Shown: positions 9,580 through 31,553 of the stretch, one piece after another
Layout of the letters: every line of letters begins with the position of its first letter
Position numbering within the stretch: the stretch's first letter is position 1
DNA from: an uncultured Lachnospiraceae bacterium
GTDB lineage: Bacteria; Bacillota; Clostridia; Lachnospirales; Lachnospiraceae
NCBI GenBank assembly: GCA_910589105.1
Contig: CAJUST010000011.1
Coordinates: forward strand, 64,001 to 98,038
DNA length: 34,038 bases
Direction: 5' to 3'
The notes under the pieces: model-generated
Seen by the model: the letters and a program-made list of their open reading frames with translations, nothing else
Database searches by the model: none
What the model was told of the DNA's origin: nothing
Position numbers and translations under genes: made by a program

Positions 9580-11400
9580 TCATTGGCATAATGTACCAAT
9601 TAGTATTGCCTGCCTTTTCCGCTCCAGATGAAGATACGCATTTTGCAAGCGCATACCGTTTGTCGAATCGAATGATGAAAAAGCAAGAGACGGATGCCAA
9701 GGGATACACTGTCATGCGGGAGGAGGACAGGAAGGGTCAGACATACACTTATGGAGAAAAAGAATTTGCGGGTTATTACCGAAAAATGTTTTCAACTGAA
9801 AAAGTGGATTCCCAGACAGTTTCGTATACAAGGAAAAAAGCAGAGCAAACAGTTCCTTTTCCCGTTTATTTGGCGCCTGCGTGTGGGATTACTATTGCAA
9901 GGCTTTTGCATTGGAATGGCGTATGGACTGCATATTCAGCCAGAATATTCAGTTTGCTGTTTGTTGCGCTGTCAGGGGCTGTTTCTTACAGAATACCGCT
10001 ATACCAATTCTGATGCGGGGCTTCATTTGCGGGAAGCGACTATGGTCTTGCGGACAAATCAGGTGGAAGGAATGTTTTTTTCGCATTTTCAGTTTGCAAT
10101 GGTGTTTGAAATTTTACAGCCTTTTTGCGTGAAGTAACATGGTACAAAGGATATATTGCCGCAGATATTGCGTTTCAATGGCTGGAGATTTTGATTTTTT
10201 TTGTTTGGATAAAGAAGCTTGCGGCAGGTAAATTTTTGACGGCGCTTGTTTGTCTTACTGTGCCTTTCTATTATCTGGCGTATCCGATCCATAGTTTTTA
10301 TTTTTCATTCACTTACTGGGGATTGGGCGTATTGTTATTAATATATATTTTGCTACTTCTGCAAAGGGAGAGGGAGCGTATGGAGCGCCGTTCAATTGTT
10401 TTAGCCCAGCTTATGCTTGCCTGCTTTTCCCTTTGCGTCTGCTATATGTTGTTTGCGCCTGTGGCGTTTGTCTGCGTCTGGCTGGAATTGATGTGGGGCG
10501 GGGAGAAAAAAAGGCGTTTCTCTGCCAAATGTAAAGAGACGCATTTTGTGTTTTTACTGCCGTGCGCATTGGGGATTTATTTCTGCTATTTTGATTTTTT
10601 CTTCGGTCAGGGAACAAGTATTTTAGGAAGCATTCAAAATGAAGGCGGGATTTATTCAAATTTATTTGGAAATTTTATTCTTTTAATGCCAATGGCGGGG
10701 TATGGGTGGATACGGGGGATCAGGAAAAAACAGCCTCAGGCAGTGTGTTTTACCGGATTTTTGGTTTTTGCGGCGTGTATGCTGCTTGGCGCGCTGTATG
10801 GCAGGATTTCAGAATATTATTTTTATAAGAATTATTATCCTCTTTGGGCATTTAGCTGGTATTTTTTCTTTTGCGGGATTTCTATTTTATATAAAAAGAA
10901 CAGGGAATTAGCGGCGGCAAATTTAGGATGCTGTTTGCTCTGCGGCATTTTGGTTTTTAGCGGCATTGATGGGAGGTTTGTTTCTTCCATGGACGAAAGG
11001 AACGGCGTAGACAGGCATTACAGTGAGGCGTTTGAGCTTTATGCGTGGAACCGGATTTACCGATCTTGGGGGGCGGTCAGATCCGTCAAAAGGGCAGCTT
11101 GCGTTGTATGAATGGGTGATGGCAAATTGCCGGACAGACGGACTGGAAACGCCGCTTTTGACGGAAAAAGAAGATTATGCGGACTGTTGTTTTTATGAAG
11201 GCGTGGCCGGCTATGATTTGGGAGAGTTTTACGGGTGGCGGTATCCGAAAGAGGAGATCTTTAAGCGGATAAAAGAAAAAGGGATTTTGTACGCGGTTAT
11301 TTTAAAAAAGAGTGATTTTATAAAAAAGCATAAAGAAGCATTAGAGGAGTATCCGGTATTGTTTGAAAATGAAGCGGGTTATGTGATTGGCTTTGAATAA
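9570..11400 (+). pseudogene. Disrupted GT-C-fold (DUF2142/ArnT/PMT-like) polytopic membrane protein gene
   Basis: The N-terminal piece has a TM helix followed by SAPDEDTHF (the DE motif of GT-C glycosyltransferases) and further TM segments. The same frame continues with plausible protein through two in-frame TGA codons (10011-10013 and 10107-10109). It then switches frame near a G6 run (about 11067) into a soluble C-terminal domain ending at 11400. Confidence 0.45.
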
Positions 11401-21805: not shown

Positions 21806-21837
21806 AAAATAAAAAACGGCAGGGCATAACCCTGCCG
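21806..21837 (-). terminator. Strong rho-independent terminator closing the minus-strand gene array
   Basis: A perfect 8-bp G/C stem (cggcaggg / ccctgccg) with a 5-nt loop. On the minus strand it is followed by TTTTTTATTTT. It starts 10 nt after the stop at 21848. Confidence 0.65.
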
Positions 21838-21847
21838 CCGCTGCCGT

Positions 21848-22987
21848 TTAGGTTTCTGAGGGAGGATTGTTTTGATCCTCTTTTTTGAGTTCGATTCCTG
21901 AAATTAATTTGTTATAGTCTATTTTTTTCTGGCTGCATTGTCTGGAAATTTCATCTGCATGTTTTTGCGCTTCGACGGACTGGTTCTGCGCTTCTGCAAG
22001 CAGGCTGTAATAATTAGATTCTTCTTTGGCATAGGAATCTAAACTGCCTGTGTCGCTTACGCTTTTTAGCGTAAATAAGCAGGAAAGCTCTGCCGCATCG
22101 GCAGGTTCCGTTTGGGCAGGTTTTGAAGCGAGCGATTTTACAGCGTTTGGAATTTGGGTCTGGAAAGTGTTCCAGTATGTATTTAACTGGTCAAGGTTTG
22201 CCTGTAGTTGTTCCGCTTCTTCTGTTTCATTTTTGTTGATAAGTTCCTGAAGTTTTAACTGGTATTGGTTTTGCTGCTGGCTGCCAATCCGTTTAAACTG
22301 CTGTAATTGTTCATTTAATGCTTTTTCGGCGGCGGACTGTTGGGTTTCTAAAAGCAGGATTTCCTGATTCAACGATTTGATTCTTTCGCTTCTGTCTTTT
22401 CGTTCTTCCGGCAGTTCCTGTCCGTTTGCATCTTTTATTTTCGAATCAATAAGAGCTGGGGATACGGAAGCCGCCATCATATCAAGGACTCTGGCAAGGC
22501 CTTCCGGCGTCCCATGGTTGGTCGCCCGCACATCGACGTGGTATTTGGCGGAATTGTCCGTACTTCTAGTGTTGGAGCTATGGGAGCTGACGCTTCCGCT
22601 GATATTGACTTTTGCAATTCCAAGATTAATAGAGCCGGAAGCAGCCGCGCTTAAATCGGTTGCTTTTTCACTTTTTTCGCTTTCCTTGACTTCCATATCA
22701 AATAAGATATTCACTTCATCGACCTGAAGGTTTGGAATTGGGACAATTGCAAGCATTGGCACGTCGATTTTCATTTCGTCTTGATTTGTGGTGCCGTCTT
22801 CGTTATAAGATTTTTTCTCAAATTGGAACGAGGCTTTTCGTGTATTCCCTTTTTCGTCAAAGCCTACTTTATTGATAAATGACGCTGTGCTGTCTGCAAG
22901 CTGCATACTTGCATCTGCAGCCGCGCGTAAAGGCCCGCCGATAAGGTTTCCCATATCTAGGCCTGAAAACTGATCTCCGATCGCCAT
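21848..22987 (-). CDS. Hypothetical protein, module paralog 2: N-terminal alpha/beta domain (possibly DUF2589-like), Ser/Thr-rich linker and a long Q/E/K-rich coiled coil
   Basis: The ATG giving MAIGDQFSGLDMGN... sits 8 nt after AAGGAGG (the track start is 21 nt further upstream). KIDVPMLAIVPIPNLQVDEVNILFDMEV is shared with the paralog at 25083-25943. Confidence 0.6.
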   Translation of the reverse strand: MAIGDQFSGLDMGNLIGGPLRAAADASMQLADSTASFINKVGFDEKGNTRKASFQFEKKSYNEDGTTNQDEMKIDVPMLAIVPIPNLQVDEVNILFDMEVKESEKSEKATDLSAAASGSINLGIAKVNISGSVSSHSSNTRSTDNSAKYHVDVRATNHGTPEGLARVLDMMAASVSPALIDSKIKDANGQELPEERKDRSERIKSLNQEILLLETQQSAAEKALNEQLQQFKRIGSQQQNQYQLKLQELINKNETEEAEQLQANLDQLNTYWNTFQTQIPNAVKSLASKPAQTEPADAAELSCLFTLKSVSDTGSLDSYAKEESNYYSLLAEAQNQSVEAQKHADEISRQCSQKKIDYNKLISGIELKKEDQNNPPSET

Positions 22988-23000
22988 AAGCGTTACCTCC

Positions 23001-24716
23001 TTATTCATTTACTGGTAAAAATGTTTCGATTAGTTCATCTGCTGAAAATTCTGCTAAATAATGAATGGTATTTTTGAAAATTTCACATATCGCGCCAGTT
23101 TCCTGATACAGATCTGTTTGGGCAAAAGCCATTCCGTTTATCAGTACATTCGAGAGATTTCCTGTAGAAAGGTCTAGTTGGATTAGAGGAATATCTCCTT
23201 GCTGGAAACTGTGATGAAGGGCTTCTTTTAACACATTTTCCTGTATATTTTGTATAAAGAACGTTGTTTTTAGATTTTCCTGAATGAGATTGCAGTAGTC
23301 ATCAGCAATCCTATCTTTATCTTCGTAATCCACATAAATTGAAAGCGCCCGCGCAAGTTCTGAAGTCCGGACAGGAACTAGACGCAGGAGAGGATTTTGC
23401 CGGATTAAAGAAGTCAAAAAATCAGAGAGTTCTTCAATGTGTTCCATACAATACTGGCTTGCAGTGAAAAAACCATTTGTAAAATCTGGATAAAAAAATT
23501 GAACATTATCATAACAAGTTCCATCTTTGCCGTCAAATGTGAAATATGATACGGCGTCGTCCCCAAAAGCGTTCTGACGTGAACAAAGACTGTCCCGAAT
23601 CATTGTGGCATTTAGGCTGGCAGAAGTGATGACGTTTATCTGAAAGGCGCATTCGGCATCGAGGACGATGGGGCCGTTTTCTGTGGGCATGATATTGTCC
23701 TGATGAAGATCGGTTACGCCTGCAAGTTTTGCCGCATAGGCTAAGACCCCCATTTTTTTGTAGTAACTGTGTAATTCCGTTTCCGTAAAATCCGGCTTTT
23801 TCGTGACAAGTTCTTCCATTCCGTAGTTTGCATTGTCAAAAATAACCATACACGGCAGATGGCATTCATCGGGAAGCCGTTCGTTTAAATAGGTGATGAA
23901 GCTGTTTGGCCCTGTAAATAAATAATCCGCTTTCATATTCCGCGGCTTATATGCCCATTGGCTGGAATTTCGTTCCGCAAACAGTACCTGTCTGCCAAGC
24001 ATATGTGGGTCAGATCCGGAAACGCGGATATCATATCCTTCTAAATCAACGCTCACAGCGCCTAATAGGAAGTTTACGGTATTTTCAAAACGTGTATGTA
24101 CAAGCGCATAACGGGTTTCAGACGGTTCTTCCGCATATAGATTTATGCTGACGTCCATAATGGCGGAGGCATATAAATCAGAGAGCTTTTGCGGAGAGTT
24201 TAAAAGCGGCCGGATCATATGCGTTTGTCCGATGTACTTTTGGATAAGCGGAAGGGGATTTACTTCCATAATGTCCCAAAATGACAATTCGGCTTCCGCA
24301 AATGGAGCAATTCCCTCATTTATTCTAACGGGAACTGCCATTTGATTTAAAATAGGAAGCAGTTCCATAAACTGATGAAACAGTTCACCGGAATGTATGG
24401 CTTCCATACAGCAGATAACGCCGGAGCAGGACTGTGGTTCGGAAAGGGTGGATTCCCTTAGTTCTGCAAGTTCATCTGAAATGTCCATATTTAACCGTTC
24501 GGAAAGCGAAGCTGCCGCCTGATCAAACGAATCTTCTGTATTCTGAGAAGCTGTAATCATCGCATCTCCTTTCTGGGTTTTGGCATTTTTCAGTTTCATT
24601 TTTTGGTCTGGCAAAAATACGCTGTATTGCGCTTCGTCTGCCAATATAGGGCGGTAGTCTGCCAGATAATAATAATATATGGGAAGCTTTTCTCCATTAT
24701 GTGTTTGTACCGTCAT
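23001..24716 (-). CDS. Stand-alone LanM-type dehydratase/kinase-fold protein (DUF4135-like); no LanC cyclase domain
   Basis: GVTDLHQDNIMPTENGPIVLDAECAF matches the DLHxEN...D catalytic-loop signature of class II lanthipeptide synthetase dehydratase domains. The start was reassigned to MTVQTHNGEKL..., 10 nt after GGAGG (the track start at 24836 has no RBS). Confidence 0.65.
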   Translation of the reverse strand: MTVQTHNGEKLPIYYYYLADYRPILADEAQYSVFLPDQKMKLKNAKTQKGDAMITASQNTEDSFDQAAASLSERLNMDISDELAELRESTLSEPQSCSGVICCMEAIHSGELFHQFMELLPILNQMAVPVRINEGIAPFAEAELSFWDIMEVNPLPLIQKYIGQTHMIRPLLNSPQKLSDLYASAIMDVSINLYAEEPSETRYALVHTRFENTVNFLLGAVSVDLEGYDIRVSGSDPHMLGRQVLFAERNSSQWAYKPRNMKADYLFTGPNSFITYLNERLPDECHLPCMVIFDNANYGMEELVTKKPDFTETELHSYYKKMGVLAYAAKLAGVTDLHQDNIMPTENGPIVLDAECAFQINVITSASLNATMIRDSLCSRQNAFGDDAVSYFTFDGKDGTCYDNVQFFYPDFTNGFFTASQYCMEHIEELSDFLTSLIRQNPLLRLVPVRTSELARALSIYVDYEDKDRIADDYCNLIQENLKTTFFIQNIQENVLKEALHHSFQQGDIPLIQLDLSTGNLSNVLINGMAFAQTDLYQETGAICEIFKNTIHYLAEFSADELIETFLPVNE

Positions 24717-24820
24717 TTTTTTTAAACCTCCGTTTGACATAAAATGTGTTTTTAATCCCATGAAATAGGAGTGCATAAGGTGTAAATTCAGCCATTTTTT
24801 CAAAGTATCCATTTTAAAGC

Positions 24821-25093
24821 CTACAATTCTAACCATATCGGTTTTCGGGGAAAGCCGATATGGTAGGTGGTCTGCTCCATTGTCAGTTCATGTTCCCCGA
24901 TGGCGTACCTGCCAATAGAAATATCCTTGCCGATAATGACCCCTTTTGGGCTTTCGTTTAGACATCGGTTTAACAAGGCCGCCTGCTGTTGTTTGGATTC
25001 CTCAGAAAGCGGGTGGTTCGGGTTTATGCTGCCAAGTGTAATTGTTTTAATAAACCTTATATCTTCATAATGTGTTTTGCAGTCAGGATTCAT
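24821..25093 (-). CDS. Small hypothetical protein (90 aa)
   Basis: The ATG sits 9 nt after GGAGG. Sequence MNPDCKTHYEDIRF...GVIIGKDISIGRYAIGEHELTMEQTTYHIGF. Its start overlaps the end of the upstream paralog by 11 nt. Confidence 0.5.
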   Translation of the reverse strand: MNPDCKTHYEDIRFIKTITLGSINPNHPLSEESKQQQAALLNRCLNESPKGVIIGKDISIGRYAIGEHELTMEQTTYHIGFPRKPIWLEL

Positions 25094-25943
25094 TTGGGGC
25101 GCCTCCTTTTTTGAAGGATTCCACTTTATTTTCTAGCATCGCTTCTTTCACGCTTATGAGTTCTGTTAAGATTGTTTGTCTTAATTCTTCATATTCCTTT
25201 GGGTCATATGGAGCGTTAGAGAACTCTTTAGACAGGCATTCCGGCTCTAGTTCTTCTTGTAAAGATTCTCTTGTTTCCATATATTCTGTGATTTCCTGAT
25301 GCAGTTTATGTAACGCCGCTTCTTGCTGTCTGAGGGAACGTTGGAGTAAAAAATCATCTTTTTCAGAATTTTGCACAATTCCGTCACTTGAAATGGGTGA
25401 AGCATCGATTTGCTTTGCGACAGGATTTGCGTTTAGAATGTCTAAAATCCGCATATAGCCTTCCGTTTCGTCTACTGCTTTTAAATCGATTTTATAGTTG
25501 ACAACGGGCTGTGCGGCGGATTTTTCCCGCTTCAGGGAACTAATTTTTCCGACAGTGAGCGGGGCGTTTTGCTCGTTTTCGGAAATGTGGACTTCCGTTG
25601 AAAATTCTAGCGTGGCATTTTTTATTTTTAAGTTTGGGATTTTTATAATTGATAACAGAGGCACTTCGATTTGGACGCTTTCCATATAGGGTTCATTGTG
25701 TTCTGCCGGGTGTAAGCGTTCATATGCCAGATTTAATTTTTTCAGGTACAGTGTTTCTTCGCCGTTTCTAAGTTTCACTGTGCCCATGCTTTTGATTTCG
25801 TCAAGGATTGCCAGTGAAAGCCTTGCATTTGAGGAGGCAATGGCGTCAATGGGCGCGTAGACTAGGTCATTAAGCGGAAGAAATTGCTTTCCGCTTGTTA
25901 TTTTATCTTGATTGGACTGTTCCTTTTGTTCTGTTTCCTTCAT
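25083..25943 (-). CDS. Hypothetical protein, module paralog 1: same N-terminal domain as 21848-22987, then a shorter coiled coil
   Basis: The ATG giving MKETEQKEQ... sits 7 nt after GGAGG. VQIEVPLLSIIKIPNLKIKNATLEFSTEV and LVYAPIDAIASSNARLSLAILDEI align with the paralog. Confidence 0.6.
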   Translation of the reverse strand: MKETEQKEQSNQDKITSGKQFLPLNDLVYAPIDAIASSNARLSLAILDEIKSMGTVKLRNGEETLYLKKLNLAYERLHPAEHNEPYMESVQIEVPLLSIIKIPNLKIKNATLEFSTEVHISENEQNAPLTVGKISSLKREKSAAQPVVNYKIDLKAVDETEGYMRILDILNANPVAKQIDASPISSDGIVQNSEKDDFLLQRSLRQQEAALHKLHQEITEYMETRESLQEELEPECLSKEFSNAPYDPKEYEELRQTILTELISVKEAMLENKVESFKKGGAPNES

Positions 25944-30501: not shown

Positions 30502-30605
30502 TAAGGGCATAAAAAGCCGCTTATATTTTTTTGATAGAGTGTCCTTACCGGAAGAAAAGCCGGAATAAAGACGCAAGAAAGAATGGCGCGGGAAAGAAGG
30601 AAAAT

Positions 30606-31553
30606 ATGAAGAAAAAAAATGTATGTATGATGTTTGCGGCGGCTGGGATTTGCGCGGCATGCGCGCTTTTGCTGGTTGGGAGCATGGGGATTTATGCGGA
30701 AAAAACAGGAAAAGAACAGCTTATTCCTATATCATCGGATAGTGAAACGGCGCAAATGCTGTCCGATGTTTTGGAGGAAAGTATGGAACGCAAAACACCC
30801 GTGGCAAGCGGGCCGTTATCAGATGGGGAGTTAAAAAATATCTGGGATCGCATGTATGCAGAATATGAATCTTCAGATCAGGGGCGGGAGGAATTAAAAC
30901 AGGAGGAAACGGAAGCCGCATTGCATGAAAAACTGGTGAAAGAAGGCTATGGGGACGTGTATGGATTGTCTTTGGACTCCGCTAAGCTTGGCGTATCGGA
31001 TGCGGGCCTGCTTTTTCTAAAAGAGATAAACCGGCTGTTTCCAAAAGAACAGTTTGAAAGTTTCTACATTCGGAGTGCGCGTTTGGAAAGTGAGATTGGA
31101 GTGAACGGTTTATCATATATTGCATGGACAGGTTCTATCGTAAATATGGAAAATGCCGCAGATCCGTCCTATCGGTCGTATGATTTTGAAATTGATGCGA
31201 TAAGTGGGAAAATCAATTCATTTGGCAAATTTCGCCCTTATCAGGCAAATCAGGATTATTCTAAGATTTCTTGGACGGACGAGGAGATTTTGGAACAGGC
31301 AAAAGAACTGGCGGCAAACTATGGGCTGGCGTCTGGAGAAGAATTGGATTGGCAGAATGTGGAGCTTTTGAATGGGACAAATGAGGCTGGCTCTTTGATG
31401 GACGAACTGAAGCAGGACCCGGAAAGCAGCATAAGTCTGAGTAATGTAGTGAAGTTTCAGAAGAATGGGAAAATGAATTTTTATCTTGGCATGGATTTTG
31501 AGACAGGTGAACTTTGCAATTATTTCTGGCCGGGAACAAGCCATGGATATTAA
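30606..31553 (+). CDS. Secreted/membrane-anchored protein of unknown function, probably co-transcribed with the two-component system
   Basis: The start MKKKNVCMMFAAAGICAACALLL (signal peptide) has an RBS gaaggaaaat. The track start at 30531 lacks an RBS. Confidence 0.5.
   Translation: MKKKNVCMMFAAAGICAACALLLVGSMGIYAEKTGKEQLIPISSDSETAQMLSDVLEESMERKTPVASGPLSDGELKNIWDRMYAEYESSDQGREELKQEETEAALHEKLVKEGYGDVYGLSLDSAKLGVSDAGLLFLKEINRLFPKEQFESFYIRSARLESEIGVNGLSYIAWTGSIVNMENAADPSYRSYDFEIDAISGKINSFGKFRPYQANQDYSKISWTDEEILEQAKELAANYGLASGEELDWQNVELLNGTNEAGSLMDELKQDPESSISLSNVVKFQKNGKMNFYLGMDFETGELCNYFWPGTSHGY

Follow-up and report, generated by a model that had tools for sequence, protein, structure and literature searches.

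The 34,038-nt window analyzed here (contig CAJUST010000011.1, positions 64,001 to 98,038, from an uncultured Lachnospiraceae bacterium) contains a run of four head-to-tail open reading frames (ORFs) in the order A-B-C-D, spanning window positions 25943-21848 in the ORF list. Gene C encodes a stand-alone relative of the LanM lanthipeptide synthetases, and the surrounding genes A, B, and D form a core that recurs elsewhere without this enzyme. All features of the module lie on the minus strand. Gene A (25083..25943) encodes a 286-aa protein and has an AGGGG-type ribosome-binding site before its ATG, gene B (24821..25093) encodes a 90-aa protein, gene C (23001..24836) encodes the enzyme, and gene D (21848..22987) encodes a 379-aa protein. 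A and B overlap by 11 nt, the C stop lies 13 nt from the D start, and the operon has almost zero non-coding space. Shine-Dalgarno-like sites (GGAGG or AGGAGG) are found 5' of A (25943), B (25093), and D (22987). The operon is closed by an intrinsic terminator (21815..21839) with an 11-bp stem containing 7 GC pairs, a 3-nt loop, and a T-run, which was the top-listed site in the terminator scan. The original prediction for this DNA had proposed four packed same-strand genes with the 11- and 13-nt spacings and a single strong terminator, and in these respects it was correct.

The original prediction also placed the start of C at 24716, after a 104-nt gap, and assigned a GGAGG site to each gene. 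Here the gene model has to be revised. The C frame is open back to 24836 (611 aa), and the residues upstream of 24716 (LKKWLNLHLMHSYFMGLKTHFMSNGGLKK) are conserved in the P0002 homolog of locus L001 (43% identical; loci compared with the window are numbered with the prefix L). The same residues are also conserved in small separate ORFs of L005 (7725-7976), L010 (4603-4863), L003, L091, and L092. Therefore, the apparent B-C gap is coding. The GGAGG sequence 5' of 24716 sits within conserved Asn-Gly-Gly codons; ribosome-binding sites of the proposed kind are present for A, B, and D. Most likely, C starts at 24812 (MDTLKK, 603 aa) or at 24836, and 24716 is an internal position. A start equivalent to 24812 is called on the independent contig L004 (603 aa), and a start at 24836 would produce a 16-nt overlap with B, identical to that in L005. 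As a whole, the original observation is partly confirmed; the four-gene feature is real and modestly conserved.

The C protein matches the Pfam family DUF4135 (PF13575) with an E-value of 2.4e-25, and its end coincides with the end of the LanM dehydratase domain. Its score with the TIGR03897 profile of LanM is 67.9 bits, where the cut-off is 304, and the match covers only profile positions 139-271 of 932; no LANC_like Pfam match is present in C, which ends at residue 611. Since the protein terminates with the dehydratase domain and remains far below the TIGR03897 cut-off, it has no cyclase, as was originally proposed. A profile built from C together with 39 stand-alone relatives matches CylM (5dzt, 1e-29) and LicM2 (6st5, 1e-24). 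The kinase core, which corresponds to the DUF4135 match, occupies residues 269-407 (23616..24032). Alignment with CylM pairs (i) the P-loop residues D276/H278 (24011-24003) with D252/H254, (ii) K297 (23948-23946) with K274, (iii) the catalytic loop D376-L-H378-Q-D-N381 (23711-23694) with D347/H349/N352, (iv) the metal ligand D393, within the kinase core, with D364, and (v) the phosphate-elimination motif R485-L-V-P-V-R-T491 (23364..23384) with R506...T512. The catalytic loop thus reads DLHQDN and not DLHxEN, as first described; its catalytic D, H, and N are present all the same. The downstream GDIP motif is likewise conserved.

In CylM, the phosphorylation roles of K274, D347, H349, N352, and D364 were established by mutagenesis, D252, H254, R506, and T512 are required for phosphate elimination, and the R506A and T512A substitutions lead to accumulation of phosphorylated peptide (PMC4550811). 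In C, D276, H278, K297, D376, H378, N381, D393, R485, and T491 are invariant in both the 40- and the 13-sequence alignments of stand-alone enzymes, as is P488. Because all nine CylM catalytic residues are present, C is predicted to combine a complete ATP-dependent Ser/Thr kinase with a phosphate lyase, rather than being a degenerate relic. One alternative is that C is only a regulatory kinase that reversibly phosphorylates A, B, or D without elimination, in a role similar to that of the STAS, PP2C, and anti-sigma-kinase proteins encoded beside other DUF2589 trios. The kinase residues are intact, as this alternative needs, and there are LanM enzymes whose final products are phosphorylated (PMC10235938). 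We nevertheless consider it quite unlikely, since the operon has no phosphatase gene, and the elimination residues R485, T491, and D276/H278 are invariant across 40 diverged stand-alone proteins, which suggests that the lyase activity is under selection.

The proteins A and D are paralogs, because BLASTP aligns them with E=4e-12 (25% identity over 234 aa) and both match the Pfam family DUF2589 (PF11655; profile length 154, cut-off 23). The domain spans residues 23-172 in A (25428-25877; 7.3e-17, 62.6 bits, profile positions 1-153) and residues 12-172 in D (22472-22954; 1.4e-40, 139.6 bits, profile positions 2-152). It is followed by a helical/coiled-coil tail in A, the short paralog, and by approximately 200 aa of predicted long helices in D, the long one. 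The two paralogs on either side of B and the enzyme had thus been rightly noticed. They had been left without a family; they do belong to a known one, and this family is itself uncharacterized, as our literature search returned no paper giving a function for DUF2589. The profile searches that the original prediction proposed for all four proteins therefore assign A and D to DUF2589 and C to DUF4135, and assign no family to B.

The A family comprises 35 homologs, all containing PF11655. The D family is much larger (>2130 homologs), and its N-terminal domain is 69-92% identical across Clostridia. A Ser/Thr-rich loop of D (ISGSVSSHSSNTRSTDNS; residues 129-146, 22550..22603) is a candidate modification site. 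Within it, the D family shows conservation of at least 90% at G131, S134, H136, N139, T140, R141, S142, D144, N145, and S146, and R141 and D144 are kept across both the A and D families. Structure prediction of the N-terminal domain, another check proposed originally, did not assign a fold. With an alignment of 49 sequences, AlphaFold2 (AF2) modeling of the D N-domain reached a predicted local distance difference test score (pLDDT) of 54; full-length D modeled with no alignment reached 42, with low-confidence helices at 197-353. Foldseek comparison of the DUF2589 model with the PDB yielded no match below E=0.05, and the DUF2589 profile yielded chance-level PDB matches only. The idea that a Cys-to-Ser swap in a loop of the A family (ARICSP) tracks the enzyme was rejected: the enzyme-bearing loci L001, L003, and L010 keep Cys, and the enzyme-less loci L132 and L127 carry Ser.

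The third member of the core, B, is the universal partner that does not belong to DUF2589. It has no relative in Pfam, NCBIfam, PHROG, PADLOC, or the PDB, where a profile search gave chance-level matches only. An iterative search found 77 B homologs in the fetched loci. In an alignment of 24 sequences (the window and 23 homologs, from Clostridia and Proteobacteria), residues G21, P25, L41, N42, C44, P49, G51, Y77, G80, F81, R83, and P85 are invariant. The family has an invariant Cys44, near-invariant His68 and His78, and an invariant C-terminal motif YHxGFxRKPxW. Judging from these residues, this small protein may bind metal or have a catalytic function.

A further connection between the enzyme and its neighbors, overlooked in the original prediction, is provided by the N-terminal segment of C (residues 1-80, 24597..24836), which resembles a truncated DUF2589 half-domain consisting of a helix and a beta-hairpin. 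In the window and in L001, this segment and the enzyme form one fused protein; in L003, L010, L005, and L091, the segment has a separate gene of 75-86 aa. A hidden Markov model (HMM) built from five N sequences recognizes, outside its own family (the five source sequences and close relatives), only 136-aa mini proteins from L160 (5.8e-5) and L145 (0.014). The reverse HMM, built from the mini proteins, recovers the N ORF of L005 at 5.2e-5. The mini proteins (136-138 aa) belong to DUF2589 according to Pfam (1e-9 to 2e-11), and they share with N the operon slot after B, in the order A-B-mini. An hhalign comparison of N with the mini proteins yields a probability of 67% and E=5e-5 over 47 columns. 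By these comparisons, N is probably, although not provenly, the helix-plus-hairpin half of a third DUF2589 paralog.

The genomic distribution separates the core from the enzyme. In a metagenome scan that yielded 80 loci, the combination of A, D, and B is nearly universal and occurs in several orders and orientations. Among 30 non-redundant loci flanked on each side by 2.5 kb or more, B is present in 30/30, at least two DUF2589 genes in 28/30, and the enzyme in none. The sole enzyme-bearing locus among the 80, L090, is the window's own contig. The core reaches Proteobacteria (L009, L158, L164, L169, and a Vibrio plasmid, L170). In the tree of D, the enzyme loci (the window, L001, and L003/L010) and the loci that have only the N gene (L005, L091, and L092) form a single subclade. 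Because C is absent from all 30 trio loci and from the L005/L091 lineage, the core works without the enzyme. Thus, the conserved unit is the three-gene core A+B+D and not the four-gene module of the original prediction, and C is a rare clade-specific addition that was lost or never gained in close relatives.

The enzymes most similar to C are indeed rare. A word-indexed search of 5.8 billion proteins revealed only three C-like clusters, and on their contigs the genes follow the order seen in the window. When 1.84 billion representatives were searched exhaustively with a profile, 3462 matches were obtained, including 283 at E<=1e-10 and 45 at E<=1e-30; the 283 are clusters at 50% identity, and the weakest of them are full-length LanMs. 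The best matches are 500-850 aa long, as expected for stand-alone enzymes, and full-length LanMs appear only from about 1e-14. Window-type enzymes account for only two to four of those clusters. For the genome scan we used the 13-sequence enzyme alignment, since the 40-sequence one was too diverged.

The gene order of the window is also observed with enzymes that are 40-43% identical (L001/L002, L003, and L010). A second (type-2) architecture, DUF2589-284aa-180aa-119aa-enzyme, is found in L015, L017, L018, L019, and L024. In its variant (L013, 668-9590; L014, 2489-11726), two DUF4135 enzymes bracket DUF2589, 290-aa, 185-aa, and vWA proteins; a gene combining TIR and STALD domains (Thoeris-like) is divergent from this operon. 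Among the 19 closest stand-alone enzymes from species-representative genomes (L010-L028), eight have a DUF2589 neighbor. The two architectures fall into separate enzyme clades in a rough neighbor-joining tree, which is too crude to distinguish a single origin of the DUF2589 linkage from repeated ones. The original prediction had asked whether such an enzyme recurs next to these paralogs. The link does recur, in L001/L002, L003, L010, and seven type-2 genomes, and the enzyme itself is rare; the earlier interpretation as a whole is partly supported. Homology of the type-2 284-, 180-, and 119-aa proteins to DUF2589, B, or N was considered and found unsupported, the best hhalign probability being 26% (the 284-aa protein, at VP-L-IVP). 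In L024 (3769-8260), a Cys-rich 75-aa ORF and three ORFs of about 460-486 aa directly follow the type-2 module; they may constitute an unrelated cluster for a peptide that is ribosomally synthesized and modified post-translationally (RiPP).

These data bear on the possibility that C is a chance or decaying insertion that came to lie between B and D, has no functional connection to them, and is in the process of being lost. The closest relatives, L005, L091, and L092, hold only the short N ORF at the enzyme site, as might be expected in this case. In four diverged lineages that share the gene order, however, the enzyme ORF is intact and retains all catalytic residues. Moreover, a clade of related enzymes is linked to another DUF2589 operon, and the enzyme is joined in frame to a segment derived from DUF2589. 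Such a chance origin is thus very improbable.

Indications of what the core itself may do come from its neighbors in the 30 non-redundant loci. A signal-less protein with Amidase_2 and Phage_lysozyme domains is encoded on either side of the trio in 18/30 loci (Clostridia; e.g., L124, 4760-5830), and in high-GC Proteobacteria a hydrolase with GH108 and PG_binding_3 domains precedes the trio (L009, 6776-7312; L169, 5817-6374). Because two unrelated families of peptidoglycan hydrolases accompany it in two phyla, the core appears to be tied to the envelope or to lysis and release. A canonical holin is mostly absent near the loci with the trio and a hydrolase. A SpoIIE-type PP2C phosphatase fused to an HATPase_c_2 kinase domain is present in 16 loci, and a STAS protein in eight; examples of such partner-switching genes after the trio are L113 (8414-11537) and L114 (1379-1690). 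No sigma factor was seen with these genes. These genes suggest control of the core by Ser phosphorylation. Together, the domains of the neighboring proteins point to an envelope- or lysis-related, phosphorylation-regulated role of the DUF2589 core. None of the recurring neighbors named here and below is present in the window or in the type-1 (T1) enzyme loci, and among the type-2 loci a weak amidase-like match is seen in L019 only. The position of the partner-switching genes beside enzyme-less trios and their absence from the enzyme loci would fit a purely regulatory kinase function of C.

Other recurring neighbors of the trio are a GNAT-like protein, a Peptidase_C58 protein, and a small tyrosine recombinase, and in termite-gut loci a 123-aa membrane protein is encoded nearby. 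The 273-aa tyrosine recombinase (Phage_integrase and a SAM-like N domain) is located 1-3 kb upstream of the amidase-trio genes in 13 loci (e.g., L096, 2817-3638) and could mark an invertible or mobile segment.

Some stand-alone relatives of C occur in a different context. In Glaciecola amylolytica (L021, 6684-9086; CP034120.1), a single 800-aa protein contains the eCIS_core domain of extracellular contractile injection systems (eCIS) followed by a full DUF4135 domain. In Anaerobacterium chartisolvens (L012, 3657-12034), the enzyme is encoded among eCIS_core, AAA ATPase, DUF4280, and Pvc16_N genes. By their domains and neighbors, both enzymes look like injected eCIS effectors; therefore, for that branch, proteins and not leader peptides are the expected targets. 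The eCIS assignment fits these two relatives; C has no PF13699 match, and the window has no eCIS genes. In an Agathobaculum metagenome-assembled genome (L016, 5975-10318), a stand-alone DUF4135 enzyme with no DUF2589 neighbor is located between a LytTR regulator and ORFs that, by eye, encode small membrane (holin-like) and amidase-like proteins.

Another scenario is that of a conflict or defense module, in which C would be an effector or sensor that phosphorylates or dehydrates either foreign proteins (of phages or competitors) or essential host proteins, and DUF2589 and B would serve as scaffold, trigger, or delivery. This would fit the patchy, clade-limited distribution of the enzyme with its signs of gain and loss, the relatives that are eCIS-associated or fused to eCIS_core, the position of the L013/L014 operon, with its vWA protein, beside a TIR+STALD gene, and the frequent proximity of the trio to lysozyme/amidase genes and a tyrosine recombinase. 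We regard it as unlikely, since no PADLOC or PHROG model fits the four proteins or those of the type-2 module. Against PADLOC-DB v2, A, B, and C have no match, D has a coiled-coil-level match to DruG (E=0.03), and the type-2 proteins have no match; searches of the four proteins against PHROGs and NCBIfam added nothing. A phage origin was rejected, as the 4.1-kb DNA is unmatched in 50,697 phage records; at the protein level, D has one weak match in these records and C has none. A plasmid search with C returned true LanMs only. The identity of 69-92% in the D N-domain across Clostridia is unusually constrained for an immunity gene, and the half-DUF2589 N-terminus of C suggests a target within the module.

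The genomic surroundings also argue against a conflict module. The 34-kb window, annotated from an ORF list with a 40-aa minimum and by Pfam searches of ORFs of at least 100 aa, is ordinary chromosome with a sugar ABC transporter, purine genes, acetate kinase, AddAB, HtrA, rpsI/rplM, a DUF4130 gene paired with a DNA-repair radical-SAM gene, and two two-component systems. Scans of the window for tRNA genes and Rfam families were empty, and no mobile-element genes are present in it. At E<=1e-4, Pfam gives no match for two of its ORFs, 10125-11111 (+; 328 aa) and 30531-31553 (+; 340 aa).

The locus is not a lanthipeptide cluster. Of the features of a LanM system, it has the dehydratase domain and lacks the cyclase, the precursor, and the exporter. 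The window contains neither a LanC-like gene nor an ABC exporter of the peptidase type, and it has no small Cys-rich ORF. The ORF list includes no LanA precursor with a Ser/Thr/Cys-rich core, and there is no LanT exporter/protease, the Pfam matches being confined to housekeeping proteins and a sugar-type ABC system. The absence of a recognizable precursor gene, claimed in the original prediction, thus extends across all 34 kb, and its failure to recognize any described lanthipeptide or defense system agrees with our negative PADLOC, PHROG, and LanM comparisons.

A cryptic RiPP pathway would require that C dehydrates B, or a precursor encoded elsewhere, to a linear dehydro-peptide, with A and D being unrelated or involved in immunity or export. 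To our knowledge, DUF4135, which catalyzes ATP-dependent Ser/Thr dehydration, is known only from enzymes of RiPPs and other peptide natural products, and this speaks for such a pathway, as does the Cys-rich 75-aa ORF after the L024 type-2 module. CcaM shows, in addition, that the domain can work with no classical leader (PMC10676384). On the other side are the lack of a cyclase, protease/exporter, immunity gene, or Ser/Thr/Cys-rich small ORF in 34 kb, and the presence of B, conserved in sequence, in 30/30 enzyme-less loci, including those of Proteobacteria. The conserved residues of B are Gly, Pro, Cys, His, and aromatics, with no Ser/Thr runs, and C bears a DUF2589-like N-segment and no RiPP recognition element. 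We therefore consider a RiPP product very improbable.

Comparison with characterized systems shows where C departs from them. Irreversible beta-elimination on folded proteins is known from the phosphothreonine lyases OspF and SpvC, which are injected effectors; the lyase domains of class III and IV lanthipeptide synthetases are grouped with this precedent. The OspF/SpvC-type lyases have another fold and depend on a separate kinase for the phosphate, whereas a LanM-type domain performs both steps in a single active site. Their use as injected effectors parallels the eCIS-linked stand-alone DUF4135 proteins. In Bacillus spores, the atypical kinase CotH is encoded beside its Ser-rich structural substrates CotB and CotG. 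C is likewise an atypical kinase-fold enzyme encoded beside structural-looking proteins; CotH differs from it in belonging to another kinase family, in having no lyase step, and in its substrates, which are not DUF2589 proteins.

With the LanM enzymes CylM and LicM2, C shares the signature of the DUF4135 kinase-like fold, the nine catalytic residues, and GDIP. It is only about 25% identical to them, has no LanC domain, LanA, or LanT, adjoins structural-looking proteins, unlike the genes in LanM loci, and has about 230 N-terminal aa that are unique to it, starting with the DUF2589-like segment. CcaM/LanMbC of the dehydrazole pathway is a divergent, leader-independent DUF4135 dehydratase that makes no lanthionine; it depends on a class III cyclase fused to it and on a peptide modified by YcaO, and it belongs to a RiPP cluster (PMC10676384). 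C has no second domain, cyclase, or precursor, and no YcaO family occurs among the Pfam matches of the window ORFs tested. The orphan LanM-like protein CA_C0082 of Clostridium acetobutylicum, encoded downstream of agr, has a physiological, non-antibiotic role; it keeps a degenerate cyclase and has a truncated dehydratase that has lost its catalytic residues (PMC10301443). Both it and C are clostridial LanM relatives outside lanthipeptide clusters, and C is the opposite case, in that its dehydratase is complete and apparently active and both a cyclase and agr are absent; no LytTR or Agr families are among the Pfam matches of the tested window ORFs. In our literature searches, we found no paper linking DUF4135 with DUF2589 and nothing relevant on stand-alone LanM enzymes or on defense roles of lanthipeptide synthetases.

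The explanation that we favor, with a probability of roughly 45%, is that C is a protein-directed kinase/dehydratase that docks on a DUF2589 assembly and modifies A, B, or D, and that no peptide antibiotic is made. Several lines of evidence lead to it. The invariance of the nine catalytic residues speaks for catalytic competence, and the eCIS links of L021 and L012 for a use of stand-alone enzymes on proteins. A peptide pathway is disfavored because LanC, LanT, and LanA are missing from 34 kb and B is conserved without the enzyme. The enzyme is tied to DUF2589 because the linkage recurs in two architectures and in eight of the 19 closest enzymes. Docking is hinted at by the homology of the C N-terminus to a mini DUF2589 paralog in the same slot, and a theme of phospho-regulation by the STAS and PP2C-HATPase genes that follow the trio in 8 to 16 of the 30 loci. 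In this chromosomal operon, one small lineage would have added C to the widespread A/B/D core. The enzyme would dock via its half-DUF2589 segment onto an assembly of A and D, and possibly B, and phosphorylate Ser/Thr residues of these proteins; the phosphate would then most likely be beta-eliminated to leave dehydroalanine or dehydrobutyrine. Among possible sites, the conserved Ser/Thr-rich loop of D is the first candidate. Such a mark would be irreversible, possibly cross-linking, and would alter the behavior of the assembly. The substrate would be a partner protein in its folded state rather than a peptide with a leader, and no lanthipeptide would result.

Several observations weigh against this explanation. 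The enzyme is missing from 30/30 other non-redundant trio loci and from the L005/L091 lineage nested among the enzyme loci, and 11 of the 19 closest stand-alone enzymes have no DUF2589 neighbor. The assignment of N to DUF2589 has moderate support only: an hhalign comparison with the broad DUF2589 profile is not significant (E=0.02), although it nevertheless aligns at the equivalent VP-L-IVP hairpin. Conserved elimination residues are no proof of elimination on a protein substrate. The Ser/Thr loop of D is equally conserved in loci that have no enzyme and is thus not an enzyme-specific site but only a lead, and both AF2 models of DUF2589 proteins are of low confidence. A bolder version, in which C represents an unrecognized class of protein-directed LanM-type dehydratases that introduce dehydroalanine or dehydrobutyrine into folded proteins, with the half-DUF2589 of C inserting into a self-assembling DUF2589 scaffold that the enzyme might cross-link covalently, and with use of the domain as an eCIS toxin in other lineages, is possible and at present doubtful.

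In summary, C is a known kind of enzyme in an uncharacterized protein module, composed of a conserved core and a rare DUF2589-tagged enzyme. The apparently complete enzyme with no cyclase or precursor, its embedding among DUF2589 genes, and the fusions of relatives to toxin markers together suggest that the same chemistry acts on proteins. If the favored explanation is true, lanthipeptide chemistry would extend to post-translational modification of proteins, giving a new bacterial protein modification. It would also account for a considerable number of LanM-like orphans (E<=1e-10 was reached by 283 clusters, the weakest of which are full-length LanMs), which genome miners now mislabel as lanthipeptide clusters. 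Finally, it would provide the first functional handle on DUF2589 and an experimental entry to the DUF2589 and B module of gut Clostridia and Proteobacteria.

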